Assembly (NCBI GenBank): GCA_964519305.1
Contig: CAZFHY010000008.1
Coordinates: 83,195 to 147,194 of the forward strand
Length of the DNA: 64,000 nt
Source: Candidatus Undinarchaeota archaeon
GTDB lineage: Archaea > SpSt-1190 > JASMDC01
Direction of reading: 5' to 3'
Under the pieces are notes generated by a model, which had not been told where the DNA came from, did not search any database, and saw only the letters and a program-made list of their open reading frames with translations. The stretch's first letter is position 1; each line of letters starts with the position of its first letter. Both the position numbers and the translations under genes were made by a program. This document shows, piece by piece, positions 37,814 to 52,102 of the stretch.

Positions 37814-39235
37814 ATGACGCTAGTCGTGTACAACACTCTGGGCAGGGAAAAGCAGGAGTTCAAGCCGGCCGAAGGGAACAACGTACGGATGTACGTGTGC
37901 GGACCCACGGTGTACGACTATTGTCACATAGGTCATGCCCGGTCCTACGTCGCATTCGACGTCATACGGCGATGGCTGGAGCGTAAGGGGTTCAACGTCA
38001 TCTACGTTCAGAACTTCACGGACATCGACGACAAGATAATCAACAGAGCGAACGAGAAGGGCGAGGATCCCGTCAAGCTCGCCAAGAAGTTCATCGATGC
38101 GTATGTCGAGGACATGTCAGCGCTAGGTGTAAGGGACGCGGACGTGCATCCCCGGGTATCCGCACATATCCAGGACATCATCGAAACGGTGAAAGGGCTG
38201 ATCGATAAAGGGTTCGCGTACGAGGCAGGGGGAGACGTGTACTTCTCGGTCGAGTCTTTCTCCAACTATGGGAAGCTCTCGAACATATCCTTGGACGATA
38301 TGCGCAACGAGCAATCCGCTCTCAAGCAGCACTCGCGAGACTTCGCTCTATGGAAGGCTTCGAAGCCCGGCGAGCCCAAGTGGGAGAGCCCGTGGAGCGA
38401 GGGACGTCCCGGATGGCATATCGAGTGCTCGGTCATGTCATCGAAATACCTCGGTCCTTCTTTCGACATTCACGGAGGGGGCGCGGACCTCGTGTTCCCA
38501 CATCACGAGAACGAGATCGCGCAGGCAGAGGCGGCGTCAGGGAAGACACCTTTCGCCCGATACTGGCTGCATAACGGTTTCATCACCATCGACAAGGAGA
38601 AGATGTCAAAATCGCTCGATAACTTCTTCACAATCCGCGAGGTACTCGAGAAGTTCGAGCCGGAAGCCGTCAGGTTCTTCTTAGTGCTCACGCAATACCG
38701 GAGCCCCATCGACTTCTCGGACAAGGGGATCGAAGAGGCATCACGCGGCTTAGAGCGGTTGCGGAACACGGTCCGGAAGCTCCAGGCATTGATCCGGGAC
38801 GCCACAGACACGGGAGCTCTCTCGACGGCGGAAGAGGGGATGCTCAAGGCGGCCGTGAAGGCTGAAGAGGATTTCGCCTACGCGATGGACAGCGACTTCA
38901 ACACGGCAGGCGCCGTGGCCGCGCTCTTCGAGCTGGCGTCCGCGACCAACGCTTTCCTCCAGAAGAACGATGAGCCCAACCGGCTAGTCCTGAAGAGGCT
39001 CATGGGGACCTTCCTGGACCTCGGGGACGTCCTTAACATCTTCTGGGAGTTCAGGGAAGGCTCGAGCGGCGACGATGAAGTGACGGACGGTCTGGTCAAG
39101 CTCCTCATCGAGCAGCGGAAGAACGCACGTACGAACAAGGACTGGGCCGCAGCGGATGCCATCCGCGACAAGCTCGCAGAGATGGGGATCGCGCTGGAGG
39201 ACAACGCGGGCGGGACCGTGTGGAAGCAAGTTTAA
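37814..39235 (+). CDS. cysS: Cysteine--tRNA ligase
   Basis: YVCGPTVYD, HIGH, GRPGWHIECS, HGGGADL, KMSKS, ADAIRDKL. Confidence 0.98.
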   Translation: MTLVVYNTLGREKQEFKPAEGNNVRMYVCGPTVYDYCHIGHARSYVAFDVIRRWLERKGFNVIYVQNFTDIDDKIINRANEKGEDPVKLAKKFIDAYVEDMSALGVRDADVHPRVSAHIQDIIETVKGLIDKGFAYEAGGDVYFSVESFSNYGKLSNISLDDMRNEQSALKQHSRDFALWKASKPGEPKWESPWSEGRPGWHIECSVMSSKYLGPSFDIHGGGADLVFPHHENEIAQAEAASGKTPFARYWLHNGFITIDKEKMSKSLDNFFTIREVLEKFEPEAVRFFLVLTQYRSPIDFSDKGIEEASRGLERLRNTVRKLQALIRDATDTGALSTAEEGMLKAAVKAEEDFAYAMDSDFNTAGAVAALFELASATNAFLQKNDEPNRLVLKRLMGTFLDLGDVLNIFWEFREGSSGDDEVTDGLVKLLIEQRKNARTNKDWAAADAIRDKLAEMGIALEDNAGGTVWKQV

Positions 39236-39267
39236 CGTCGGATGATGGTACTCCATGTTAAATTTGA

Positions 39268-42200
39268 TTAGTCGTCCGGACAATGGCTTAGCGCTGATTT
39301 GGCCGAGTCGCGGACCAGATCGAAGTCATCATCGAGCGCGGACTTCAACGCGGGGATAGCTGGTTCGATAAGGCTGGGATCCTTGGCAGCGAGGACATCA
39401 AGCGCGATCGCGACACTTGCTCTAATGTTACGATCCGTGTCAGAGAGTGCCTGCGAGAGGGGTCCAATAGCTAGTTTGATGATTTCAGGTCTCTTATCAC
39501 CGAAGGAAAAAAGGGCACTGACGGCTTCATCCCGAACATCAGCATTATCATCCTTGAGTAGATTGATGGTTGCGGGAACGACCGTGATGACTGACTCGGG
39601 ATCATCCCCACCTATATGGCTCAGGACTACTAAAGCAGCCTCCCGGACAGAAGGATCCTTGTTCTTCAATAATCTCTTGAGCGTGGGGATTGCTTTATTG
39701 GTACTTCCAGGATGCCTTATACTATACCAACGGAGGGCATAAGCGGCATCAACGATTGTCTGCACATCATCCGACATGAGGCCGTCAAGAAGAATCGGTA
39801 TATGTTCTGTTCCTGCGTCAGGATCCTTCTCGATGGTCTTGCGGAGCTCATGCAGCGATGATATTGGTTTGTCAGCATCTATAGGTTCTGTAGCGATGGT
39901 CTCTTCGACATCCTGCGGTGCTGTTTCATGCTTTACATCCTCTTCTTCGTCTTCTTCCTCCACTTCCTCTTCGTCTTCTTCCTCTTCTTCCTCCCCGATC
40001 ACGTGCGGGACCTTCGTGACGATCTCTGCTCCCGTTACCCTGGACCTCCACACCGCGATGAGAAGGGCCAGTATGACGATGGCGGCGATGACGCCGGGAT
40101 GGACCGGGTACTGAATCTTGCCGGACGGACCTGAGACGGTCTCCGGCTGAGCGGGCCCTTCTACGTCAGCAGCGAAGACGCGGTCAACATCGACCGTGCT
40201 CAGGTCGGCCCACGTGTTTATTGGAGTGCTGCCTTCTGTATCCTTGGATATGTCCACTCCTTCATCGAGAGCGAGACCTGATTCCACGTAAGAGATCTCG
40301 TGGGACCGGACCGTCCCCTTCACGATCCTGTTCGAGACCGTCGGTGATTCGTACACCCTGTCGTTGAGCATCATTCCTGCAGTAAGGTTATACTCCTCGA
40401 CCTCTTCATGGGCATCGTGCGCGCTCACGAACGTGGAGTATCCGATCTCGTATGGCACGTAGATGATCTCGGACCCTCCCTCCATATCATATGACGTCCG
40501 TGCATTGGGGATCTGGACCTCGTACTCGCCCGTCTCGTAGTTCATCCCCACATGCCTGCCCAACGAATCGACCACGTGGAGGTCGAGGTCTAACTGCTCA
40601 CCCTCGACCATCTGCACCCATGTCCTGGTTATGCCGAAGAGGACCTCGTTGACACAACTCCAGAACCCGGCGTATTCGAGAATGGCGTTTTCGGGGAGCA
40701 CGTTGCTCGCAAGACCCACGTGTTTGGCGGCTTTATCGGACAGGGAGAGGAAATAGCTCATCCTTTCGACCGCATCGATGCAGGCTTCGCCTTGATCGGT
40801 GAATCTGCCGTGCTTCTCATAGCACCGGGTCTTGAGCACATCCCTGTACTCGTGGATACGCGCCAGCTGGTCGAACTCTCCATAGCTGCCGCACATGAAC
40901 TCGAAGAAGTCGTGCTGCTCCGCACCTATCGAATCGAGCAGTGCCTTGTAATGACCTCTCATACAGTTGACGAAGGCCGCTCTAAGGTACTTGCGCGCGT
41001 CATCTTCATCGACACCCTCTTCCTTGACGATGTCGTTGACGACCGTCTTGCAGTCCTTGATCAGGCCGATGCTCTCGAAGCTCTTCTTCATGACGTGGGT
41101 GAACATGTCGTTGGCCTTGCAGGTGGTCCCTCCAGTACACCCGCGCTCATCGCTCACCGAACAGGACAGGTCGCACGTCCCCTTGACATAATACCCGCTC
41201 GATAGAAGGACATACGGGCATGCACAGTCGTTCTCGCTCGTGTAGCAGTTCTCGCCCAGGTTGGGCTCGCAACGATTATTGTCACGGCATACGCGCCTAG
41301 GTTTTTTCAGGGAGCGGAGACCGATGAGATACTCCCTGTGCTCCTCGTAGCTGTCGCTGTCCTTCAGGATACCTGGATCGCCGAAGTAGGAACAGTCCTG
41401 CGGGCAGTTAACGCACTCGCTGGGATTACAATTCCCGTCCCCACAGACGACGTCCGGGGGCATCCGGTCATGCTCAGAGAGCACTAGCAGCTCGAAATAT
41501 GTTTCGAAGGGGGATGATTTTGAAATGACGACCTCGCATGCCTGGCCGCGTTCCAGCCTCACTCGTTTCTCGATGTACTCGGGTATAATTCTATCAGAGA
41601 CCCAGCGACCGCATCCCGCGACGTTGATCTTGTACTCTGTGCCGAGGGTGAACATCGCGATCTTGTATATCCCCGTATCCCTTGCCTTGAACCCGTACCT
41701 GACCTCTTTCGTATCGAACTTTGCACAGAATTCCGCTGTTTCGCTGATGACACCGAGATTCCTGCCCGTGCATCTGACGGGAACAGGGCTTACTTCGGGG
41801 GGGCGTGGACAGTCGCGGGGACAACTCTCGTACGACTCGTCATCTTCACAGACCACGTTCCCGCAGTACTGCTCTACACAATTTCCCTCGAAACATAAGC
41901 CGTTGTCACAACCACAGTCCTCGCAGCAATTGGCCCTGGTCTCGTGCGTTCTGCACTCACCATCGCCGCAGACCTCGGTCCTGACCTCAACTGATATGTC
42001 GTCCAGTCCCCTGCTGTCCCAGTCCAGCTCAGCACCGTGGGCGATGCCCTCCCATCTGAAGATGCACGTCTCGTCAGAATCGTGCTGCAAGCTCTGGCAG
42101 ATGATATCCTCGTTGGAATCCACGATGCTCATCTTGTAGATGATGTCCCGTTCCTTAGTCCCGAACGTGCGGAAACTTATGATCCTCGGACCTGAAGGTA

Positions 42201-44940
42201 CGTATGATGAATCCGAGTCCATGAGCAGGTACCACTGGTCCCTTCCGAGTCCGTAGCAGTCACCGGAGAAGTACGGTTCCACGATGATCTTCCTGTTATC
42301 GTTCGATCTTGGACCACCGCACCCGTCGCTGACTTCCACGGACCAGGTATTGAAGGTGAAGGTGGCGAGGTATCCTTTGTCGATATTTCCGATCTCGATG
42401 ATGTACGTCTCCCCTCTGGCGAGCTCGGACTGCAGACTGCTCGAGCTCGCCGAGACACTAGACTTTTCTCCGACAATGTCGAGTTCAGAGTCCTTTATCA
42501 CGATACTGATACTCCGCTCCTTCTTGAACGAGCGGGCCTTTATGGCGAACGGGGTGTCCCGGAAAACGTGCACCTTGTAGAAGACCTTGTTGGCCTTTGG
42601 GGACAAGCACTTCGTCTCGATACCGTTGTAGCTTTCCTCGATCTCAACGACATCGCCGAAGTCCGTGCTGCCGCAGAGATTGAGCACAAGGGGCCCACAA
42701 AAACCTCCGTCGCATACCTCGCCATCGGGACACGCTTCTTCGGCCATGTACGGGCACCCGCTGTCGTCCGCCTTGCAGGTCCACTTTATCGTTTCCCCGT
42801 TGCATCCACTATCACCTGTCGAGCACGCCTCGATGCACATCGCATCCTTTTTCACACATTCTCCGTTCATGCATTTCTGACCGCTCCCGCAGTCGGTGTC
42901 CGCGCAGCACTCGTAGTCGCATGCCTGCTCGTCATCGCTGTCCACGCAGTGATGCTCGGGACCGCACTCTTGTCCGTTCGGGCAATGTGCTACCTCCTTA
43001 CAACATCGCTTTCCGCTTTCGCAGCAGACCTGTGCAATGCAGTTACCTGAACGGCACTCGTCATTATCGGAGCATGATTTGCCATTGTCAGCAAGGGGGG
43101 AGCATGTCTTTAATTCTGGTTGACAGTACCATCCTTCTTGGCAATTAACTGTATCTTCACAGCAGGTGATAAAATCCGGTTGGCATTTTCCCCCGCAACA
43201 GTTGTCAGAACCGCAATCTTCGTGCGATGAACAGGCTTGATACAGCGTTTTTTTCTCAACGGGCTCCGGTTCTTCACTGACAACGCAGATATGCTCTTTC
43301 TGGTCACAGTAATAGTCGCCCGGACAATCACCCGAGGATCGGCAGCAGTAGGACCCGTCCTGGCAGCAGAGACCGTTGTTGCAGTTGTTGGACGAGCACT
43401 CGTCGTCGGACGAGCACGACTCGCCGTCGTCCTTCTTCTCATCCTGGCAGCGTTTCGTGCTCCCGTCGCAGTCCAACGATGCACAGTGCGCATCGGCCGT
43501 GCAGCATACACCGCTGTCGATCGCGGGATCGCAGCAGATGCCCGTGGAGGTCCCAGAAGGGATGTAGCACTTCCTGCTCTCACATTCCGAGTTCGAATGA
43601 CATGTCTCGTACAGCTCGGCGAGGTCCGGTGTTTCGACGCATATCTTCGTGTTCGTGTTGCAGTCACCTGAATCGCAGTGGTCATCAGAGGTACAGCATT
43701 TCGCGTACAAGGATTCGTATTTACAGCAGATCCCCGTACTCGCGCCGCTCTTCCGGTGGCAGTTGTCCGACTTGCAGTCAGCGTCCGACGAGCATGGTCC
43801 GTAGTTCTCCGCGCCCGAATAGGAACATGCGTGGTAATCGAGATCGCACACGTGGTTGCCCTGGAGGGGCTCGCAGTCGGCGTCGGTGTTACAGCAGTGG
43901 GGCTCGTCGAACGGATACATGCAGCACACGCGCTCGACAGGGCCTTGAGGGGAGGGCGTGGGCTTCTGTCTGCAATAGCTGTTCTCCCCCGCACAGTCGT
44001 CGTCCGACGTACAGGACCCGCCATCGGCAGCACCGGCGCTCACGCACGTCCCTTCCGAGCAGACCTTGTCGGGTGAGCAGTCAGTATCCATCTTCTTAAG
44101 GCAGTTGCCCTGCCGCGAGCAAGACCATCGTGTGTCACCGTCCGTGCATCCATAGCTCCCTTCGCCGCACTCGTCGTCACAAGCCGTGCAGTAGTGGTCG
44201 TCCCCGCAGTACTGACCCAAGGAACAGTGACCATCGCTTGTGCAGCACGTCTTCCCGGCAGCGCAGCAGATGCCGTTGCCGGCATTGGCCGACGCACATG
44301 CGTACTCGCGCACCGGATCGCCCGCAGGCTCGCCGTCCTCGGCCGGGCGCACGTTGCAGATGGCGTAGTCGAGTGCGTTGGCCGGGATGCTGTAGGAGGC
44401 GCAGTCGCCCTGAGGTCCGTAGTTACCGTATTCATCATCGTTCTGGTAGGCGAACCAGTAGTTGGTCCCGTCGGTGGCCTTCCACGCGTACGCCACGGGG
44501 CCGTCCCAGCCGGTGCCCTCCCAGCCAGGATCCACGTCCGACCTGTAGACCTCTGCGTGGTACATGGTCACCCCGCAGAACGTGTACACGGACTCATCGA
44601 AGACATCCCACTCAGAACGGGTGAACTGGGCCTCGAAATCAGCGAACCACGCAGCTCCGCCTGTGGTCCTGTGCTCGATGTACGATCCGTAGCATCTGCC
44701 GCTGGACCATATGCTGTCGATATCGGTCCTTCCGGGCGACATGGACGATGGCAGGCAGATGTGCGCGAAGTGAGGATTGGTCCTGCCTGCGCACACGAGC
44801 CCCGGGTCGCAGGTCACGTCGTTGTCATCGTGCTCATTGCAGAACCCGCCGATGCCGCTGGCAGCGAGAACGTCCGCGGATTGTAGGAATAACAGAACGA
44901 GAACAATGAATATAGGACTGAGGACCTTCCTTCCCACCAT
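39268..44940 (-). CDS. Giant Cys-rich single-pass surface protein with cytoplasmic HEAT repeats
   Basis: Signal peptide, many CxxDxxC...CC units, CGDGxC motifs, beta-sandwich-like segments, TM GVIAAIVILALLIAVW, poly-Glu linker, HEAT repeats. Confidence 0.9.
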   Translation of the reverse strand: MVGRKVLSPIFIVLVLLFLQSADVLAASGIGGFCNEHDDNDVTCDPGLVCAGRTNPHFAHICLPSSMSPGRTDIDSIWSSGRCYGSYIEHRTTGGAAWFADFEAQFTRSEWDVFDESVYTFCGVTMYHAEVYRSDVDPGWEGTGWDGPVAYAWKATDGTNYWFAYQNDDEYGNYGPQGDCASYSIPANALDYAICNVRPAEDGEPAGDPVREYACASANAGNGICCAAGKTCCTSDGHCSLGQYCGDDHYCTACDDECGEGSYGCTDGDTRWSCSRQGNCLKKMDTDCSPDKVCSEGTCVSAGAADGGSCTSDDDCAGENSYCRQKPTPSPQGPVERVCCMYPFDEPHCCNTDADCEPLQGNHVCDLDYHACSYSGAENYGPCSSDADCKSDNCHRKSGASTGICCKYESLYAKCCTSDDHCDSGDCNTNTKICVETPDLAELYETCHSNSECESRKCYIPSGTSTGICCDPAIDSGVCCTADAHCASLDCDGSTKRCQDEKKDDGESCSSDDECSSNNCNNGLCCQDGSYCCRSSGDCPGDYYCDQKEHICVVSEEPEPVEKKTLYQACSSHEDCGSDNCCGGKCQPDFITCCEDTVNCQEGWYCQPELKTCSPLADNGKSCSDNDECRSGNCIAQVCCESGKRCCKEVAHCPNGQECGPEHHCVDSDDEQACDYECCADTDCGSGQKCMNGECVKKDAMCIEACSTGDSGCNGETIKWTCKADDSGCPYMAEEACPDGEVCDGGFCGPLVLNLCGSTDFGDVVEIEESYNGIETKCLSPKANKVFYKVHVFRDTPFAIKARSFKKERSISIVIKDSELDIVGEKSSVSASSSSLQSELARGETYIIEIGNIDKGYLATFTFNTWSVEVSDGCGGPRSNDNRKIIVEPYFSGDCYGLGRDQWYLLMDSDSSYVPSGPRIISFRTFGTKERDIIYKMSIVDSNEDIICQSLQHDSDETCIFRWEGIAHGAELDWDSRGLDDISVEVRTEVCGDGECRTHETRANCCEDCGCDNGLCFEGNCVEQYCGNVVCEDDESYESCPRDCPRPPEVSPVPVRCTGRNLGVISETAEFCAKFDTKEVRYGFKARDTGIYKIAMFTLGTEYKINVAGCGRWVSDRIIPEYIEKRVRLERGQACEVVISKSSPFETYFELLVLSEHDRMPPDVVCGDGNCNPSECVNCPQDCSYFGDPGILKDSDSYEEHREYLIGLRSLKKPRRVCRDNNRCEPNLGENCYTSENDCACPYVLLSSGYYVKGTCDLSCSVSDERGCTGGTTCKANDMFTHVMKKSFESIGLIKDCKTVVNDIVKEEGVDEDDARKYLRAAFVNCMRGHYKALLDSIGAEQHDFFEFMCGSYGEFDQLARIHEYRDVLKTRCYEKHGRFTDQGEACIDAVERMSYFLSLSDKAAKHVGLASNVLPENAILEYAGFWSCVNEVLFGITRTWVQMVEGEQLDLDLHVVDSLGRHVGMNYETGEYEVQIPNARTSYDMEGGSEIIYVPYEIGYSTFVSAHDAHEEVEEYNLTAGMMLNDRVYESPTVSNRIVKGTVRSHEISYVESGLALDEGVDISKDTEGSTPINTWADLSTVDVDRVFAADVEGPAQPETVSGPSGKIQYPVHPGVIAAIVILALLIAVWRSRVTGAEIVTKVPHVIGEEEEEEDEEEVEEEDEEEDVKHETAPQDVEETIATEPIDADKPISSLHELRKTIEKDPDAGTEHIPILLDGLMSDDVQTIVDAAYALRWYSIRHPGSTNKAIPTLKRLLKNKDPSVREAALVVLSHIGGDDPESVITVVPATINLLKDDNADVRDEAVSALFSFGDKRPEIIKLAIGPLSQALSDTDRNIRASVAIALDVLAAKDPSLIEPAIPALKSALDDDFDLVRDSAKSALSHCPDD

Positions 44941-45077
44941 GGTTTCGGTTATGACCGGTCATTAATAAATAACAAAGCTCGGCAACGTTCCTGTCCGATT
45001 AAGCCGTTAAATCCGAACTGACCAAACTATAAAAACCAACAGCACTTATCCTCCAAACAACCGCAAGGCAATACCGA

Positions 45078-45151
45078 GCAGGGGTGGCAGAGCGGTTACG
45101 CCGCCGGCTGCAGACCGGCTTACCGGAGTTCAAATCTCTGCCCCTGCTCCA
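45078..45151 (+). tRNA. tRNA-Cys(GCA)
   Basis: GCAGGGG/CCCCTGC acceptor stem, U73, encoded CCA; anticodon arm GCCGG-CT-GCA-GA-CCGGC; TTCAAAT T-loop. Confidence 0.96.
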
Positions 45152-45190
45152 ATCCATCATCCCAGTCCGAGGTCCGGCCGGGGTGGGGCC

Positions 45191-45772
45191 TCAGGGCTTT
45201 CCCGGTTTGCCGGGTTCTATCTTTACCGGAGTGATCAGTGATCGCATGATAACAAGGAAGATATATGTGAACCCGAAACACAGGAACGGAATGACCATCG
45301 GCACCAGGACATGAACGAGGGTCGGTGATCCATAAGGCAGATAGGTCGCTCTTGTGGCCGGGGCCACGGCCATATCCCCCATATCAAAGAAGATGTTGAA
45401 CGAGATGATCCACTTGACGAAGGGGAACAGCCCTCCGAACCTCGATGGCAGATTATACTTTAGCGTGACGATCGCGGCAGAGATGGCGAACACACCCACG
45501 GTCAATCTGTTGTAGACTGTGCGATCGTGATCTTCGTTGTACTTGGGTCCGTGTCCCCCATCATGAGATGACGCGACCAATAATACGATTTGTAAGGGTA
45601 CCAGCACCAGAACAAGACCCATTTCATAACTATAACACGCCTCCTCGATGCCCTGGTAGCATGCTCGAACGGGTCCAGCGATGAACGTTAAGAAGAAAAG
45701 GACGGTCACGAGCATGAACCTGAACTTCCAGGTCCATACCTCTGGATGGTCCTCGTACACTGGCCGATGCAT
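45191..45772 (-). CDS. Hypothetical multi-TM membrane protein
   Basis: 193-aa ORF with 4-5 hydrophobic segments. Start uncertain. Confidence 0.6.
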   Translation of the reverse strand: MHRPVYEDHPEVWTWKFRFMLVTVLFFLTFIAGPVRACYQGIEEACYSYEMGLVLVLVPLQIVLLVASSHDGGHGPKYNEDHDRTVYNRLTVGVFAISAAIVTLKYNLPSRFGGLFPFVKWIISFNIFFDMGDMAVAPATRATYLPYGSPTLVHVLVPMVIPFLCFGFTYIFLVIMRSLITPVKIEPGKPGKP

Positions 45773-45821
45773 TCTTCTTCACACGTCCATCTGTCCTATC
45801 TAAGGGAGATCATGGAATTGC

Positions 45822-45871
45822 TTCCAACCCCGGTAAGAATATGAATTTCTTTCTTTTATATCTGGTTATGC
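45822..45871 (-). mobile_element. Short or degenerate attC-like site
   Basis: Minus strand GCATAAC...GTTGGAA bounding an imperfect AT-rich hairpin. At 50 bp it is short for an attC. Confidence 0.4.
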
Positions 45872-45959
45872 ACCAGCCCGTATATTGTTGATAATGTATG
45901 AATATTAGGATTGTGACCAAGATTAATAATAACGAGGACTGTATGAGAAGTCAGGATGA

Positions 45960-46133
45960 ATGACCATGGGTGATGAAGAATCTGAGTTATCTCTACAAAG
46001 TCTTTCATCCATGCTACCCTTCTTCCTTGGCATAGCCGTAGTATATGCTGGGATACAAACTCTAGATAGGAGAGTCCTGGTAATAGGATACGTCCTCCTT
46101 TTCGTATCAACGGTACGTTGGTATCAATCTTAA
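45960..46133 (+). CDS. Small 57-aa two-TM protein (cassette gene; not in ORF track)
   Basis: MTMGDEESELSLQSLSSMLPFFLGIAVVYAGIQTLDRRVLVIGYVLLFVSTVRWYQS. AT-rich; stop 10 nt before the repeat core. Confidence 0.55.
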   Translation: MTMGDEESELSLQSLSSMLPFFLGIAVVYAGIQTLDRRVLVIGYVLLFVSTVRWYQS

Positions 46134-46142
46134 CGGGCCAGC

Positions 46143-46285
46143 GCATAACAACCGGCCTTCTAGCTACGGGCCGCTGAGACGGCCCTCCGTCCACACGTCC
46201 CCGGGGGCCCTGGAGCCTGGCCGATCTGAACCTCGCATGAAATACGTGTCACGGGGCCGTGATCGGGGACACCGGACCGTTATAC
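46143..46285 (-). mobile_element. attC-like imperfect palindromic element, full copy A (143 bp)
   Basis: GCATAAC...GTTATAC termini, ATAAC/GTTAT and CCGG/CCGG pairing, further imperfect arm pairing. Homologous to partial copies at 46692, 47853 and 48666. Confidence 0.65.
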
Positions 46286-46297
46286 AAAAGACGGCCT

Positions 46298-46315
46298 TAT
46301 TGCTTTAAAGCAATA
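46298..46315. promoter_or_regulatory. Perfect 18-bp palindrome centred on a TATA-like box
   Basis: TATTGCTTT|AAAGCAATA about 25 nt upstream of the cupin ATG at 46333. Confidence 0.6.
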
Positions 46316-46332
46316 TGATTACAGCTCTAATC

Positions 46333-46668
46333 ATGTCGGAGTTCTTTCCACCCCCGATTTTATCATTACCAAAAGCCGATATCCCCTTTGATGGTGTCAA
46401 AGCACATTTATCACAAGGAGATAATCATCAGGTCCTTTTCATGCAATTTGAAAAGGGTGTCGAGGTTCCCGAGCACTCACACGAGGATCAATGGGGTGTT
46501 GTACTGGAAGGGAAGATTGAACTAACAATCTCCGGTAGAAAAAGGACATATCAAAAGGGAGACCGATATTATATCCCACATGGTGTCAAACACTCGGCTA
46601 AAGTATATGCCGGATATGCCGATATAACCTATTTCGATCAGAAAGACCGATATAAGAAAAAGGACTAA
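46333..46668 (+). CDS. Cupin domain protein (cassette gene)
   Basis: PEHSHEDQWGVVLEG...GDRYYIPHGVKHSA cupin motifs. AT-rich (24/60 GC in 46381-46440). Confidence 0.9.
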   Translation: MSEFFPPPILSLPKADIPFDGVKAHLSQGDNHQVLFMQFEKGVEVPEHSHEDQWGVVLEGKIELTISGRKRTYQKGDRYYIPHGVKHSAKVYAGYADITYFDQKDRYKKKD

Positions 46669-46691
46669 TTCAATTTCATTGGCCGTCCTTC

Positions 46692-46746
46692 GTATATCAA
46701 TCGGCCTTCTAGCTCCGGGCCACTGAGACGGCCTTCCGCCCACACG
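46692..46746 (-). repeat. Partial copy B of the attC-like element
   Basis: 48/55 identical to 46143-46197; core mutated (GTATATC). Confidence 0.85.
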
Positions 46747-46771
46747 CCACTGATCTTCTGAAGACTCGTGT

Positions 46772-46843
46772 TCCTAACGTCGCTTGAGTATGACTAAGCG
46801 GGGTCGCGTCTGTGAGCCCTTGACCATTATGCGTTCGTTAGCT
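46772..46843 (-). mobile_element. Second-type attC-like site (72 bp)
   Basis: CTAACGtCGC...GCGttCGTTAG terminal pairing with an imperfect inner stem. Confidence 0.45.
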
Positions 46844-46908
46844 CAAAATGTATTCCTATTAGTGGAGAAATGTATTTCCGCGATGGGACGTATGATTGGA
46901 ACCCGTGT

Positions 46909-47763
46909 CTACGATACCATCTCGAGGCAGGTCTTTCTCTGCGCGTTGCTCGTAATCTTCTCGCAGAGATCGGGAGTCTGATCGGCCACTGCCTTGTCGA
47001 AGTAGCACTTATTCCTTGAGTTCTGGTCCTTTAGATCATCACAGTTAGTGCCGCTCTCGCCTCCGCTCTCGCCTCCGCTCTCGCCTCCGCTCTCGCCTCC
47101 GCTCTCGCCTCCACTCTCGCCTCCGCCCCCGCTAGCCGCTGGGGCGGAGTCGCACAGGTTCGCGCAGTTCTGGTTCTGCTCGGGCTGCCTCGCACAGCAA
47201 TCCTCGCAGCTGATCTCCACATTAGCACCGCTGCCCATGGGGGGTGTGACCTTGAAGTGGAGCGAGCCACCGGGGAATTTGGCGATGTCGCCACAGGCCT
47301 TCTTCAATACGAAGTTCTTCGTACCACCAGCAGCCCACGCCTTGTTGAAGTCAGTGGTGATGCCCCACTCGGTCTCGTTAGCGAGGGGCACGTCGTTCGC
47401 GTAGAGCTTCATGTCCCACAGTTGATTGGCACGGATGGGGTTCTTGCCCCCGTTCTTCACCTCGAGGATGAGCTTGGCACCGTTCACGTTGGTCGTGGAC
47501 AATTCGCACTTGTTGTCAGATGCTGTACCGCAGAACCCGTTCTTCAGGTAGTCGACGGTCGGATAGATAGCCGTGATCTCGAGCTGGGTGTTCAGCACCT
47601 CGTCCATAGTCGTGGTTTCCTTCTTACTTGTGGTCATAGCATCTGATACGGTGTCCTTGAAGTACATGCCCACGAAGGATACGACCATGAGGCCGATGAC
47701 AAGGATGATGACGAGGATGATGGGCTGGGCCTGACCGCGTAGGGCTCTCGACCGGCGCACCAT
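46909..47763 (-). CDS. Pilin/archaellin-like protein with GGES linker and C-terminal Cys-pair repeats
   Basis: RGQAQPIILVIILVIGL class III signal, AGGAGG RBS, VKNGG motif, tail RNKCY...PDLCEKI...RKTC. Confidence 0.8.
   Translation of the reverse strand: MVRRSRALRGQAQPIILVIILVIGLMVVSFVGMYFKDTVSDAMTTSKKETTTMDEVLNTQLEITAIYPTVDYLKNGFCGTASDNKCELSTTNVNGAKLILEVKNGGKNPIRANQLWDMKLYANDVPLANETEWGITTDFNKAWAAGGTKNFVLKKACGDIAKFPGGSLHFKVTPPMGSGANVEISCEDCCARQPEQNQNCANLCDSAPAASGGGGESGGESGGESGGESGGESGGESGTNCDDLKDQNSRNKCYFDKAVADQTPDLCEKITSNAQRKTCLEMVS
47051..47122. repeat. 12-bp coding tandem repeat x6 (GGES)
   Basis: CCGCTCTCGCCT x5 plus CCACTCTCGCCT. Confidence 0.95.
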
Positions 47764-47852
47764 ATACCTCCTGTTAGGGAACATCCCGTTTGAAAAGGAA
47801 GCTCCTTGATTATTATATTTTGCACCGACTCAATAAAACACAAGCGTGCCCG

Positions 47853-47890
47853 GCTCCAGGCCGCTGAGACGGCTCCCCTCCGATCCGCAC
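47853..47890 (-). repeat. Partial copy C (left arm) of the attC-like element
   Basis: GCTCCAGGCCGCTGAGACGGC vs GCTACGGGCCGCTGAGACGGC in copy A. Confidence 0.75.
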
Positions 47891-47953
47891 CCAAAACCTA
47901 AGGTTAAAAACTGGCTCCTTTTTCCCGGGACGCTTAGTAGTTAGGTGGACACG

Positions 47954-48652
47954 ATGTACGAGGACCTTGAAACTGCCGGCCATGACCGGGATTACCCCGA
48001 GCACGGGGAGAACTTCCTTGACAAAGCTATCGATTTCATGGTCCCTGTTTACGATTTCTTCTTCAAGCACGTGCATCGCGAGCACAGGTTCCGTGAGCCG
48101 CTCCTGGAGATGTCCGACCTTCGCGGGGGCGAGACCGTGCTCGACATCGGCTGTGGCACGGGCACCTACGCCATGATGATGGCGGACAGTCTCCCGGACG
48201 GCGAGGTCCACGGTATCGACTACTCCGAAAGGCTGGTCGACCATGCGAAGGGCAAGGCCGGGGAGCAGGGGTACGACATCGAATACCGTGTGGGCCCCAC
48301 GACGGCACTGCCCTATGACGACAACACCTTCGACGTGGTATCGTCGACACTGTTCTTCCCCTACCTCAACGAAGAGGAAACGAAGGGGACGCTGGAAGAG
48401 GTTTACCGCGTCCTGAAGCCGGGCGGTAGGTTCGTCTCGTACGATATGGTAGAGTTCCCCCAGAACAGGTTCTTCGACAACGTACGCAAGCTCATCGGCG
48501 ACGAGCCGGGGCTGCTGGACGGTCTCTACTCACATGACGTGATCGAGGGAGCGGGGTTCACCATCGTCGACGAGCGGGTGGGTCCCAAGTTCAAGGTCTT
48601 CTACGACACGAAGTTCTTCGTGCTCGAGAAACCCGGCGTTCAGGAGCAGTAG
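47954..48652 (+). CDS. Class I SAM-dependent methyltransferase (UbiE-like)
   Basis: VLDIGCGTG, GIDYS, LPYDDNTFDVV, EVYRVLKPGG. Confidence 0.92.
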   Translation: MYEDLETAGHDRDYPEHGENFLDKAIDFMVPVYDFFFKHVHREHRFREPLLEMSDLRGGETVLDIGCGTGTYAMMMADSLPDGEVHGIDYSERLVDHAKGKAGEQGYDIEYRVGPTTALPYDDNTFDVVSSTLFFPYLNEEETKGTLEEVYRVLKPGGRFVSYDMVEFPQNRFFDNVRKLIGDEPGLLDGLYSHDVIEGAGFTIVDERVGPKFKVFYDTKFFVLEKPGVQEQ

Positions 48653-48665
48653 GTCCCTTTTCCCC

Positions 48666-48784
48666 CGCCGAGATCGACAACCTTCCGCTCACACGTTGCC
48701 GAATGTCCGGAAAGATACCTATGGCTTGGACATTGCTGAGAACATGCGTCCAGCGACGCGATCGGGGACCTCGGACCGTTATTT
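48666..48784 (-). repeat. Partial copy D (centre and right arm) of the attC-like element
   Basis: GATCGGGGACCTCGGACCGTTAT is 21/23 identical to 46261-46283; CCTTCCGCTCACACG matches the A/B centre. Confidence 0.75.
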
Positions 48785-49051
48785 GGCCTCTTCCTCGCTC
48801 TCTTTCTTCTCTTCACCTTCGGTTTCAGGTTCCGCTTCGGCCGCTTCAGCCTTCGCCTGTTCTACCTTGAGGTCCTCGAGCTTCTGCTTATCCTTTTCCG
48901 CTTGAGCTTCGAGTTGTTGCTGGTGTTTTGCAGCGAGCACTTCGGTTATCCCGGATCCTGCAGCTTCTCGATTGCATTTCTTACAAAGACCAGCGTAATT
49001 TAGGAAATTGGTTGTGTTGCACGCTTTACATTCGCTGTATTTTTTTGCCAT
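48779..49051 (-). CDS. Small CxxC-CxxC zinc-binding protein with acidic coiled-coil tail
   Basis: CKAC...CKKC, GGTGA RBS, AT-rich. TAA stop lies inside the AAATAAC core of repeat D. Confidence 0.7.
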   Translation of the reverse strand: MAKKYSECKACNTTNFLNYAGLCKKCNREAAGSGITEVLAAKHQQQLEAQAEKDKQKLEDLKVEQAKAEAAEAEPETEGEEKKESEEEAK

Positions 49052-49195
49052 CATAATCACCTTACTTCAAGGTACGTCCACTTCATAGGTACTATTCTTT
49101 CTTATAGGTGACCTCGGTGCCATGGACGGTTCTCGAACGAGAAGACGCCTTCGACCACTTATTAAATACTTTCTTTCGAATCAGGATGGATGCTC

Positions 49196-50173
49196 ATGAA
49201 AGCGATCGTATGCACAGAATACGGATCACCGGACGTTCTTCAGCTCAAAGAGGTGGAGAAACCCACTCCCAATGACAATGAAGTGCTCATCAAGGTATTC
49301 GCGACAACTGTGAACCGGACCGACACACACATGCTCAGGGCGGAACCCTTCTTTGCACGATTGGTCACAGGTATGTTCAGGCCGAAGAAAGAGATACTTG
49401 GTACCGAGTTCGCCGGCGAGATCGAGGCTATTGGCAAGGGCGTGACAAGGTTCGCGGTGGGCGACCGGGTGTTCGGGTTCGAGGACGACGAGTTCGGAAC
49501 CCATGCCCAGTACATGACGATCGCTGCGGACAAGGCGCTCGAGACGATACCCGAGGGTTGTACCTACGAGCAGGCGGCGGCCAGCACCGAGGGCACGTAT
49601 TACGGGTACAATCTCATCAAGAAGATCGGTCTCGGGCCCGGGGATGACGTGTTCGTGAACGGGGCCACCGGGACCATCGGTTCAGCGGTGGTCCAGCTCC
49701 TGAAATATCAGGACGCCACGATCTCGACGACCTGCAGGACCAAGGACCTCGAGATGGTGAGGTCACTGGGGGCCAAGAGGGTGATCGATTACACGAAAGA
49801 GGACTTCACCAAGGATGATGGGGAGTATCGGGCGGTCATAGACGCCGTGGGCAAGAGCACCTTCGGGAAATGCAAGGGATTGCTGGGGCCCGGGGGTGTC
49901 TACATCTCGACCGACCTGGGGCCCTGGGGTCAGAACGCCTTCCTGCCGCTAGTAACGTCGCTGGTCGGGAGCAAGAAGGTCCTCTCACCCATCCCAACGG
50001 ACCTCAAGGGGTGTGTACGCCTCGTAAGAAAGCTCATCGAGGAAGGAAGGTTCACGGCACTCATCGACAAGACATACCCTCTCGAGAAGATCGCCGATGC
50101 CTACCGGTACGTCGAGCTGGGGCAGAAGACGGGGAACGTGGTCATAACCGTAGGGCATGATGACAGAGCGTGA
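49196..50173 (+). CDS. NAD(P)-dependent medium-chain dehydrogenase/reductase (quinone oxidoreductase-like)
   Basis: MKAIVCTEYGSPDVL, GTEFAGEI, NGATGTIGS, VIDYTKEDF, KTGNVVI. Confidence 0.92.
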   Translation: MKAIVCTEYGSPDVLQLKEVEKPTPNDNEVLIKVFATTVNRTDTHMLRAEPFFARLVTGMFRPKKEILGTEFAGEIEAIGKGVTRFAVGDRVFGFEDDEFGTHAQYMTIAADKALETIPEGCTYEQAAASTEGTYYGYNLIKKIGLGPGDDVFVNGATGTIGSAVVQLLKYQDATISTTCRTKDLEMVRSLGAKRVIDYTKEDFTKDDGEYRAVIDAVGKSTFGKCKGLLGPGGVYISTDLGPWGQNAFLPLVTSLVGSKKVLSPIPTDLKGCVRLVRKLIEEGRFTALIDKTYPLEKIADAYRYVELGQKTGNVVITVGHDDRA

Positions 50174-50224
50174 TGGTGTCGCCGATGAGATCCCTATTGA
50201 TACTGTTCTCACGTTATACGGCTA

Positions 50225-52102
50225 TTATCTATCATGAACTAGCCTGAACACCTGACCCGAATGGATGGCGACCACGTTGCCGTCGGGGTTCTCGCTGATG
50301 GCGAAGTTGTCGACAGCACCGCTGTTGTGAGCGAAGATGGACCTTCCAGACCCGTCTAGGGGCCAGAGGTCGTACGTCACGATTGTGCTGACGAGCAGCG
50401 CGTCCTCGTTGGACAGGTACTCGATCTTGGGGACGGTGATCGCCTCGTTCTCCAGCACGGAGGTCGCGAACACGGTCGCTGTCGTGTCACCATTGGCGAT
50501 GCGATGGATGACGTTGGCCTGGCGCTCGAGCACGTAGATGTTCCCCGACACGTCAACGGTGCCGGCGGGAAGGGACGAAGTGACGCGCACGTCGTCGAGC
50601 TCGAGAACCTTCTCCCGTTCATCGGGATCATCTATGGGGATGCGCCAGACCTCGGCGGACGAACGCTCATCATCACCTGTGATGGCCACGAACGCGTCGT
50701 TGAGCGCATCGAACTGGAGGGAGACTATGGGACGGTCTGATACATGGTCGAGCCAAAGGGAAGCGGTACCGTCATCTTCGATGGTCCAGATACTGCCGTC
50801 GGTCATGCCTGCATAGACCGTGCCGTGACCGTCGCGCTCGAGGTGCTGGCAGTTCGTGCGCAGGTCATCGGTGAAGGGAACGAACCCGGACGCGTCCACG
50901 GAGACAACGCGTCCCTCGAAGTAGTGGCCGTCGCACGCCAGCACCTTGCAGTCGACCGTCTCCACGACGGCGATGGCGTTCAGGTAGGGTGTGAGATGTT
51001 CAGCGGTAAGTGCGGATGGATCGTACGCTATTACGTTGGCGCCGACGCCGTTGGCCATCAGGAACGCGTCGTGGACCGGTGACCAGAGCAACGCTCCCGC
51101 ACCGGCGATGGAGTCCATGACCTTCTCAAAGGACCCTTCCTCGTACCTGAAAAGACCATGGGCGTTGGGGAATGAATGGAGGACACCGTCACCGTCGAGG
51201 CTGAGCCCGATGGGCTCGTAAGTACCGGGGATGCCGACACCTTCGACGAGCACTTCCCGGGTGCCGTCGGAGAGGTCGACCGCTGTTATGCGGCCAGGGA
51301 ACGTCTCCGAGTAATAGAGCATATCGTTCGCCGCATCGAGCACGAGCTGGGAGCACCCCTCCGTCCCCTCGACGATGGTCGCGATGGGATCACCGTCGGC
51401 ATCGAAATGAACGAGGGATCCTCCGGGCGCGCCGGAGCAGCCGTAGAAAGAGTCGTCTTCGGTATCAACGGCCAGTGCGTTGGCCATGACGCCCCACATC
51501 TGGAGCGTGGAGAGCTCACCGTCGGAAAGCGCGTACAGCCCCGTCATCATTGTGGTCATGATCAGCCGGTCGGAGCCGGGCTGGTACGCCAAGGTGAAGA
51601 CCTCGGCCAGCCCGCTCACGTCCGCGAAGGTCGATAGCTCACCGCCCGGCCCCATCTTCAGTATCTTCCCGTTCCCGCGGGAGACGACCAGAACGTTGCC
51701 CTCGCCATCGAGGGCCAGCTTGGAGGGATAGGTGATGGGATGGTCGTAGATGACCTCCTGGCCCCAACCTTCCGGCAGTCCCTGGACCGCGGTGACCGGG
51801 GGGAGGGGTGTGGGCGTCGGTACCGGAGTAGGCTCCGGTGTAGGGATCGGTGTGGCCACAGGCGTCGGTACGGGTGAAGGACGTCGGGTAGGTGCGATCG
51901 TCGGTGTGGGTGTAGGGACCGCAGTGGGTTCCGATGTCGGTGCGGGAGTGGTAGCAGGTGTCGTTACCGGTCCGGGCGTTGACGTAGGGGCCGGGGATGG
52001 AGCGGGGGTCGCGGCGACCCCGGTGGGCGAGGTCGGTCCCGTGCCATCGGAACCGCCCGTGCAACCACTTGTGATAAGGAGACAGAGGATGAGCGATGAC
52101 AT
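50225..52102 (-). CDS. Secreted lipoprotein with Pro/Thr-rich linker and beta-propeller repeats
   Basis: LLITSGC lipobox-like motif, PT-rich stalk, repeated LALDxxGNxY blades. Start could be upstream (to 52165). Confidence 0.8.
   Translation of the reverse strand: MSSLILCLLITSGCTGGSDGTGPTSPTGVAATPAPSPAPTSTPGPVTTPATTPAPTSEPTAVPTPTPTIAPTRRPSPVPTPVATPIPTPEPTPVPTPTPLPPVTAVQGLPEGWGQEVIYDHPITYPSKLALDGEGNVLVVSRGNGKILKMGPGGELSTFADVSGLAEVFTLAYQPGSDRLIMTTMMTGLYALSDGELSTLQMWGVMANALAVDTEDDSFYGCSGAPGGSLVHFDADGDPIATIVEGTEGCSQLVLDAANDMLYYSETFPGRITAVDLSDGTREVLVEGVGIPGTYEPIGLSLDGDGVLHSFPNAHGLFRYEEGSFEKVMDSIAGAGALLWSPVHDAFLMANGVGANVIAYDPSALTAEHLTPYLNAIAVVETVDCKVLACDGHYFEGRVVSVDASGFVPFTDDLRTNCQHLERDGHGTVYAGMTDGSIWTIEDDGTASLWLDHVSDRPIVSLQFDALNDAFVAITGDDERSSAEVWRIPIDDPDEREKVLELDDVRVTSSLPAGTVDVSGNIYVLERQANVIHRIANGDTTATVFATSVLENEAITVPKIEYLSNEDALLVSTIVTYDLWPLDGSGRSIFAHNSGAVDNFAISENPDGNVVAIHSGQVFRLVHDR

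Follow-up and report, generated by a model that had tools for sequence, protein, structure and literature searches.

The window analyzed here is a stretch of 64,000 nucleotides of a Candidatus Undinarchaeota archaeon (assembly GCA_964519305.1, contig CAZFHY010000008.1, positions 83195 to 147194 of the forward strand), and it lies on contig C8 of this 3.63-Mb genome, hereafter G000. Between position 45865 and about position 50219, it holds a run of about six AT-rich gene cassettes with long repeated elements between them, which probably represents a secondary array, without an integrase of its own, of a site-specific recombination system resembling an integron. A preliminary description of this DNA, made from its letters, had recognized an integron-like cassette array and let it end at 46843; the identification is borne out by ends that chain from one unit to the next, by a repeat family found in arrays, and by cassettes common to G000 and a congener (genome G001), and the array itself proves to be longer.

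At its left end, the array opens with a boundary half-site (45865-45881, plus strand), in which GTTATGC (45865-45871) and a 10-nt extension are complementary over 17 nt (82%) to the bases that precede and run through the TAAC of the first full element (46133-46149). The cognate 7-mer GCATAAC (46143-46149) lies beyond a 57-amino-acid (aa) open reading frame (ORF) that has a hydrophobic stretch and no Pfam family (45960-46133, plus strand). This first element, A (46143-46285, plus strand), runs from GCATAAC to GTTATAC over 143 bp and is matched at 46135-46293 (148.6 bits, E 5.7e-40) by a covariance model (CM) that we built from six element copies; of its two arms, which do not pair, the 5′ one belongs to the GGCCTTCT type and the 3′ one resembles that of element E described below. 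The second cassette carries a cupin of 117 aa (46315-46668, plus strand; Pfam Cupin_2, E 6.8e-12), with a TTTAAAG motif about 23 nt upstream of the cupin ATG at 46333 as the only sign seen of the promoter of its own that was first proposed, and is enclosed by GTTATAC (46279-46285) and GTATATC (46692-46698), whose complementarity also goes beyond the 7-mers (16 nt at 88%, 46281-46296 against 46681-46696). Both pairs of 7-mers, as well as the 143-bp length of A, had been read correctly in the preliminary description. Element B comes next (46692-46843, plus strand; CM match 46684-46840, 139.8 bits, E 1.6e-37): it begins with GTATATC, matches A over 56 nt at 88%, much as first noted, and has its homologous R′ (the 3′ terminal 7-mer) as ATTATGC at 46826-46832, with GTTAGCT after it at 46837-46843. 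A different hairpin of 72 bp had been thought to follow this copy; its CTAAC (46774) and GTTAG (46837-46841) are indeed present and the stretch is unlike the 3′ half of A, but other members of the family align with it in their 3′ halves, and it is therefore part of element B, not an element apart.

The gene of the third cassette (46909-47784, minus strand) faces the other way and encodes 291 aa, with a hydrophobic segment near the N-terminus and a GGES repeat; in G001, homologues occur on contigs that gave no CM match, namely C84 (two copies) and C34. The GGES repeat is encoded by a perfect 12-nt tandem repeat (CCGCTCTCGCCT, several copies; 47051-47098). Element D, which follows, is a degenerate copy tentatively placed at about 47820-47946 (plus strand): found by nhmmer alone (C8:131035-131077, E 0.5-1.4), it has retained the inner GGCC..GCTGAGACGGC motif, and its last bases are GTTAGGT (47940-47946). 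A SAM-dependent methyltransferase of 235 aa (47945-48652, plus strand; Pfam Methyltransf_25, E 4.6e-26) forms the fourth cassette and is followed by element E (48618-48792, plus strand), whose 5′ half is decayed and whose 3′ half is conserved up to the R′ GTTATTT at 48778-48784; this weak copy scores 25.3 bits with the CM (E 1.8e-5, and 4.9e-4 in the genome search) and has an nhmmer E of 1.6e-6. The last two units have no full element: a 93-aa ORF (48779-49060, minus strand), and a zinc-type alcohol dehydrogenase/quinone oxidoreductase of 327 aa (49190-50173, plus strand; Pfam ADH_zinc_N_2, E 9.2e-21), behind which a boundary half-site GTTATAC (50213-50219, plus strand) abuts conserved flanking DNA. 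With inner (L) arms that fail to pair in A and B, with D and E as weak as they are, and with no full element in the last two units, the array agrees with the partial decay first proposed. The AT-richness reported for the first two units is borne out as well, their GC content being 0.37-0.44 when the flanks have 0.51-0.67 and the genome about 0.60.

Elements A and B are members of a repeat family of about 140-165 nt with the general form xxxTAAC...GTTAxxx, for which the CM yielded 33 distinct matches, 30 of them full length. In its 5′ part, an element consists of cassette-specific bases, TAAC, a 4-nt spacer, one arm of a stem of about 8 bp, a small GGGCC...GGCCC hairpin, and ACACG; in its 3′ part, a variable middle with TGAACYTCGC leads to the partner arm of the 8-bp stem, a spacer of 6-7 nt, GTTA, and again cassette-specific bases. 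After ACACG comes a second long-range stem, GCCCCG/CGGGGC, with variants such as GCTCAG/CTGAGC and GCCGAC/GTCGGC. The inner stem is uninterrupted over at least 7 bp in 17 of the 30 full-length elements and is built from 14 different sequences. After an exchange of 3′ arms between elements, the number with such a stem averaged 4.5 and never exceeded 10 in 200 trials; RNAalifold likewise reports compensatory changes in 5 of 22 pairs. The family thus has a conserved fold kept by compensatory change, comparable to the imperfect hairpin of an attC (an L″/L′ stem with an unpaired spacer). Its two spacers measure 4 and 6 nt in seven elements, 5 and 7 nt in three, and 4 and 7 nt in two, the one on the GTTA side being longer by 2-4 nt in 17/17 stem-bearing elements; no other consistent asymmetry is seen. 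In these same 17 elements, all extra bases lie on the GTTA-side arm, and no extrahelical base was found on the AAC arm of the inner stem, when the two attCs that we examined in a control class 1 integron (NZ_CP145492.1) each have an extra C inside L″ on the AAC arm and nearly equal spacers. Measured against the attC definition that we used (on the coding strand, RYYYAAC as the 5′ R″ and GTTRRRY as the 3′ R′, over 57-141 bp), most of the 30 elements have AAC/GTT cores and some fit the strict motifs (GCCTAAC, GTTAGGC), whereas A (GCATAAC/GTTATAC) and B (GTATATC/ATTATGC) do not; the distance from R″ to R′ is 124-145 nt in the genus and 143 nt in A. As to orientation, the preliminary description took the minus strand as the attC top strand and hence both genes as inverted. 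However, the ORF-complementary strand folds more stably in 26/30 elements (mean −25.05 versus −22.4 kcal/mol; Wilcoxon p 9e-6), as is canonical. Judged by foldability, the top strand is the coding one, as in ordinary integrons, and we therefore did not follow the idea of an inversion.

The distribution of this family is that of a cassette-associated site. Apart from those in the window, BLAST and nhmmer searches of G000 with A returned copies only within the first 2.5 kb of C8 and at one end of contig C17, and the CM found the same three clusters (7 matches at E<=5e-4, plus one at chance level, E 0.8), so that further copies exist and are not scattered. Across 101 genomes (G000 and 100 relatives), only three had matches: G000, G001 with 27, and G096 with a single weak one. 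In G001, the matches form arrays of 2-5 on nine contigs, and in general family copies sit in co-oriented arrays behind single genes or toxin-antitoxin (TA) pairs, the exceptions being lone copies at G001 C29:180162 and on G001 C70. No target-site duplication was seen beside element copies, so that they do not behave as miniature inverted-repeat transposable elements (MITEs) or dispersed repeats, and Rfam, run on 44500-47500 (E<=10) and on the whole window (gathering scores), matched only tRNAs and none of the elements; Rfam holds no family for attC. More copies exist than the assembly holds: contigs of four public sequencing runs (X5-X8) join the element core (window 46142-46203) to three flanks absent from the G000 assembly, and additional elements must therefore occur in the community or in unassembled parts of G000. 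At the start of C8 (locus L027, about 1545-1575), a remnant reading cgtcagc-atacct-GTTAGCTGACATCGG follows an AbrB/RelE pair in place of the expected full element and resembles an element that has lost everything but its two ends.

The window shows what characterizes cassette arrays and, more specifically, integrase-less attC clusters (CALINs), namely at least two co-oriented sites less than 4 kb apart, an R′ that chains to the next R″, and no integrase nearby, as no tyrosine-recombinase match was obtained anywhere on C8. To quantify the chaining, the 11 nt after GTTA were compared with the reverse complement of the 11 nt before the next TAAC, leaving out partial matches that lack an end and neighbors more than 4 kb apart: the mean match over 21 cassettes is 6.33/11, as against 4.5 when both ends belong to one element (n=28) and 4.23 when all 930 pairs are taken.

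Cassettes have moreover been reshuffled between species. Four of them are common to G000 and G001 at 77-86% nucleotide identity, each time with different neighbors: the cupin cassette (window 46287-46704, corresponding to G001 C53:8399-8816 at 83%, within an integrase-linked array), the 93-aa ORF cassette (window 48776-49137, corresponding to G001 C82:4610-4970 at 77%, between two elements), a ParE pair (86%), and an AbrB/RelE pair (82%). At the window itself, the flanks are conserved in G001 (38000-39227 with C23:5680-4453 at 83%; 50217-51794 with C23:1587-9 at 86%), and between them lies a variable region (39228-50216) comprising a gene for a protein of 1890 aa, a tRNA-Cys, a gene for a protein of 193 aa, and the array; this interval spans 11 kb in G000 and 2.9 kb in G001, what it contains is not the same in the two, and on G001 C23 a family element abuts the same right flank. 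Gene content between repeats therefore differs between the two species. Across the arrays, the cargo includes ParE/RelE/MazF pairs, cupin, PKD, TBP, MerR-GyrI, nucleotidyltransferase, DUF3795, methyltransferase, zinc dehydrogenase, and Cys-rich secreted proteins, three cassettes of this last kind being paralogous units that share even their conserved 5′ leaders. Such cargo is typical of chromosomal integrons, and the GC content of the cassettes is low. The control class 1 integron holds a chlorite-dismutase-family cassette and a cupin cassette (L157, 3779-4816), so that cupins are also cargo of ordinary integrons.

What enzyme could move these cassettes? The preliminary description called the array integrase-less, which is true of the window and of C8, and its suggestion to look for an IntI elsewhere found no canonical IntI: the integron integrase profile TIGR02249 reaches its cut-off of 265 bits in neither G000 nor G001 (99.8% and 98% complete, respectively). 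A candidate recombinase of another kind is nevertheless encoded on contig C14 of G000, 1.5 kb from the contig end. This 357-aa protein, the best match in the genome, scores 237 bits with TIGR02249 and 232 bits with the XerA profile NF040815 (cut-off 220 bits); against solved structures, it scores 151.3 bits with VchIntIA (2a3v) and 139.8 and 138.5 bits with XerA (5hxy and 4a8e). Its alignment skips residues 170-238 of VchIntIA, which are the IntI-specific region, so that no IntI-specific domain is found near patch III; in the comparison with IntI1, query residues 72-349 need 960 nt. About 80 extra residues at its N-terminus belong to no Pfam family, and the best score for the first 84 residues in the ESM Atlas (0.84) is below the useful range.

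Downstream of this gene, which is intact, and on the same strand come an antitoxin-MazF pair, a second TA pair, and an element of about 150 nt of a second type (type II), which has three TCGGATAT repeats and ends in GTTA, the contig stopping exactly at this ...GTTA. We regard the type II element as a candidate attI. Three direct repeats of GTATACCTA also lie between the integrase stop and the antitoxin start (L021, 1810-1850), and could be an operator or an arm-type binding site. In G001, the same order is found unbroken on C53, where a degenerate integrase gene is followed by antitoxin-MazF, a type II element ending in CACTA|GTTAGAC, and six cassettes, with the cupin as the last; relative to it, G000 C14 has one extra TA cassette. 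G001 has four integrase copies: those on C53 and C76 precede TA genes (the C76 copy has a stop codon and is followed by a TA pair and the contig end), and on C31 (L066, 2-2571) two intact paralogous integrases of 360 and 377 aa stand in tandem at the contig end, one of them running straight into it; they are 64% and 50% identical to the C14 protein. At the syntenic site in G001, the array likewise opens with a type II element, whereas the window array has none.

Relatives of the C14 integrase were then sought by a scan of species-representative genomes, repeats beside them being counted by self-BLAST across loci, and full-length bacterial relatives that include the N-terminal domain were found at 41-45% identity. 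In Cohnella endophytica, at least 14 elements, each about 190 nt long (168-199 nt), lie behind an integrase of 385 aa and on its strand; this integrase is 42% identical, has no insertion, and scores below both profile cut-offs. The ends of the elements are of the GCCTAAC and GTTAGGC types, their stem is TGTTCACG/CGTGAACA, and their spacers measure 4/7 or 3/6 nt. Their 7-mers chain in 12/13 junctions, and the ORF-complementary strand folds better in 11/12 elements; four tandem repeats of about 45 nt also occur between the integrase and the first element (L079, 11560-11730). In Flavobacteriales bacterium ALC-1, 11 repeat positions lie behind the integrase, and among the seven examined, 10-nt ends chain in 6/6 junctions. 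The system thus recurs in three distant lineages, namely an archaeal genus, Cohnella (Bacillota), and Flavobacteriales. At nine other loci whose integrase has the N-terminal domain (L077, L078, L080, L081, L085, L086, L114, L140, and L152), the sequence ends 0.15-1.6 kb past the gene, too soon to show an array; at L111, only an inverted repeat surrounds the integrase gene, and L144, second by repeat count, was set aside because its repeats are coding repeats.

On this basis, we infer catalysis by the C14 enzyme, single-strand folding of the sites, and circular intermediates. A cassette would start just inside the GTTA core, carry one gene or operon, and end with its own site of about 140-165 nt; once free, its two ends could pair, and the folded single strand, probably the ORF-complementary one, would mimic the two-arm core site of a recombinase. 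A tyrosine recombinase would then cut and exchange strands in or beside GTTA, cassettes leaving as circles and re-inserting at the primary site. The most likely enzyme would be the XerA/IntI-like recombinase on C14, devoid of the IntI-specific domain, as suggested by its adjacency to cassettes. The window array has no type II element, and chimerism or decay has affected part of its sites A, B, D, and E, so that it probably serves for storage and is nowadays seldom altered. Integron biology defines its system by the special domain of IntI, which reads the extrahelical bases of attC. Here, the integrase has no such domain and the sites have no such bases, and the two deviations therefore fit each other. 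Whether the array is, beyond this, an outpost of an unrecognized cross-domain sister system of integrons, with a recombinase intermediate between Xer and IntI (no patch-III domain, an additional N-terminal one), an attI-like site of its own, and co-oriented arrays of long attC-like hairpins devoid of extrahelical bases, is a broader proposal on which we find ourselves evenly divided.

Several observations weigh against the reading of the window as part of such a recombination system. First, regarding the sites, A and B have no pairing inner stem, their GGCCTTCT 5′ arms facing 3′ arms of other subtypes (where the preliminary description spoke of mismatched outer ends in A, it is the inner stems of both A and B that are found mismatched), and the DNA folding energies of elements A, B, and C are not better than those of shuffled sequences (z −0.21 to −1.77). 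The claim that the elements are palindromic consequently holds by covariation across copies and not by the stability of any single sequence. With D and E weak in addition, the window copy taken alone is a poor witness. Second, regarding the junctions, 6/21 cognate ones match poorly, some of them across a degenerate element, and contigs C115 and C26 in the junction set may be duplicates of one locus. The cupin cassette has GTTATAC as its 5′ 7-mer in the window (46279-46285) and GCTAGGC in G001 (L065, about 2811-2817), when its downstream R″ is similar in both species (GTATATC/GTATACC); the junction 7-mer is therefore not always carried with the cassette, which a simple G|TT crossover does not predict. 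Third, regarding mobility, of the words sampled from window 45700-50300, 96-100% are present in each of eight public runs (two studies), six of which may be the source, and contigs from four public runs show the same arrangement and no excision joint, noting that contigs cannot show rare forms. Finally, regarding the enzyme, the G000 integrase is on another contig and its join to any array is not assembled, the copy at the sole contiguous array (G001 C53) is internally deleted, and N-terminal-domain relatives of the integrase are common on plasmids. The C14 gene is also the only XerA-like gene of G000 and its product passes the XerA model, so that it could be a housekeeping dimer resolvase.

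This last point bears directly on the idea that the array is an ordinary integron remnant, a CALIN whose attCs were moved by a canonical IntI since lost, unassembled, or acting in trans, with the Xer-like gene as a nearby housekeeping XerA. CALINs are documented in Archaea, the portion of Ghaly et al. (2022, PMC9668308) drawn on here giving 75 metagenome-assembled genomes (MAGs), 539 attCs, and 6 IntIs, and the present genus may already be listed among their carriers. The R boxes do resemble RYYYAAC/GTTRRRY (for example, GCCTAAC after GTTAGGC in element C), the organization of the arrays and their TA-rich cargo are typical, and the better folding of the ORF-complementary strand is that of canonical bottom strands, as outlined in PMC5027507. 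However, that same partial account assigns the extrahelical bases to the top strand and to its AAC arm, as is the case in both class 1 controls, and this arm has none here. Nor does either nearly complete genome reach the TIGR02249 cut-off, the elements are nearly confined to one genus, and the Xer-like integrase, of which G001 has several copies, stands at the head of arrays in three lineages that are unrelated, which leads us to reject coincidence as an explanation of its link to arrays. We accordingly consider an ordinary remnant unlikely.

Alternatively, the elements could be structured intergenic repeats with no dedicated recombinase, such as terminator or 3′ untranslated region RNAs or repeats akin to MITEs or repetitive extragenic palindromes (REPs), arrays then arising by tandem duplication and homologous recombination. 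Elements 65-88% identical to one another are similar enough for homologous exchange, A and B look chimeric with 5′ and 3′ halves of different subtypes, the three Cys-rich cassettes are paralogous down to their leaders, the elements always lie behind genes as terminators would, and their folding energy is unremarkable. Yet homologous recombination explains neither the complementary cassette-specific bases on either side of a gene with a constant core between them nor unrelated genes that each bear an element, and singly dispersed copies (save the two lone ones in G001), target-site duplications, and Rfam matches were all looked for and not seen, making this account very improbable. The Xer-dependent modules of Acinetobacter plasmids offer an analogy for a third account, in which the host dimer resolvase XerA would act on duplex dif-like sites and the long hairpin would be irrelevant; it may draw on the XerA score of the sole candidate enzyme, on the three TCGGATAT repeats as possible duplex binding sites, and on a cupin junction 7-mer that differs between species as would an overlap region resolved either way, but an inner stem kept paired over 14 variants by compensatory changes, a strand bias in foldability (26/30) that argues for a folded single strand, sites in one orientation instead of alternating ones, and an integrase with an extra N-terminal domain and several copies in G001 leave it scarcely any room.

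Returning to the reading of the window as a secondary array of an integron-like system, its likeness to sedentary chromosomal integrons and CALINs (e.g. the Vibrio super-integron; definitions after Cury et al. 2016, PMC4889954) lies in co-oriented single-gene cassettes, long structured AAC...GTT sites that resemble one another, an R′ complementary to the next R″, arrays that also occur away from an integrase, and a cargo rich in TA and unknown genes that is AT-richer than the genome. It differs from integrons in that neither archaeal genome has an IntI with the patch-III domain, in that inner stems have no extrahelical bases and unpaired spacers are of 4 versus 6-7 nt, in that cassette-specific complementarity extends 10-17 nt beyond the 7-mer, and in that the candidate integrase, which carries an additional N-terminal domain, reads in the same direction as the cassettes. 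Archaeal integrons, from what is set out in the relevant part of PMC9668308, have IntIs that carry the specific domain and attCs that passed IntegronFinder/HattCI, unlike the domain-less enzyme linked to the present arrays. The "inverted" integrons of Spirochaetota/Treponema also have IntIs with the specific domain, going by portions of PMC9668308 and PMC4889954, unlike the C14 integrase; among named genomes, its second-best full-length relative is found in a Treponemataceae MAG (45% identity). Like XerA (5hxy, 4a8e), the C14 integrase aligns over the full length of its catalytic and SAM-like domains and passes NF040815; unlike XerA, it has an N-terminal extension of about 80 aa, scores slightly higher with VchIntIA, has four counterparts in G001, and adjoins TA cassettes and arrays.

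If the proposal of a sister system were true, the capture of gene cassettes would go back further, or have arisen more often, than so far assumed, and would operate in Archaea with an archaeal-type recombinase as well as in Bacteroidota and Gram-positive bacteria, groups with few or no integrons according to published reports; for Firmicutes, the pages of the IntegronFinder 2 paper used here give one complete integron and few CALINs (PMC9024848). Current integron finders would under-count such arrays, and the sister system would explain part of the "orphan" CALIN population, most of which Cury et al. (2016, PMC4889954) left unexplained in the sections considered. In these sections, recombinases without the intI_Cterm domain co-localize with fewer than three attCs and are judged not to be IntI; large arrays that follow the boundary logic behind a domain-less Xer/IntI-like enzyme contrast with this conclusion. 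The literature searched holds no description of domain-less integrases heading cassette arrays, supplementary genome lists being outside that search. In this regard, Cohnella endophytica offers a route to a bench test.

As for the left part of the variable region, the tRNA-Cys that had been noted beside the array is confirmed at 45078-45151 (anticodon GCA, plus strand; ARAGORN; Rfam tRNA, 48.8 bits), about 700 nt to its left, and the gene between them encodes a predicted membrane protein of 193 aa with no Pfam family (45191-45772, minus strand). In G001, a stretch of about 35 nt just inside the left flank on C23 (L156, about 4390-4350, minus strand) resembles the 5′ part of this tRNA-Cys; ARAGORN, run with and without introns, reported no tRNA at that stretch. 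Farther left, present here and absent at the syntenic site in G001, lies the gene of the 1890-aa protein (39268-44940, minus strand), which is cysteine-rich and has a C-terminal HEAT-like repeat region.

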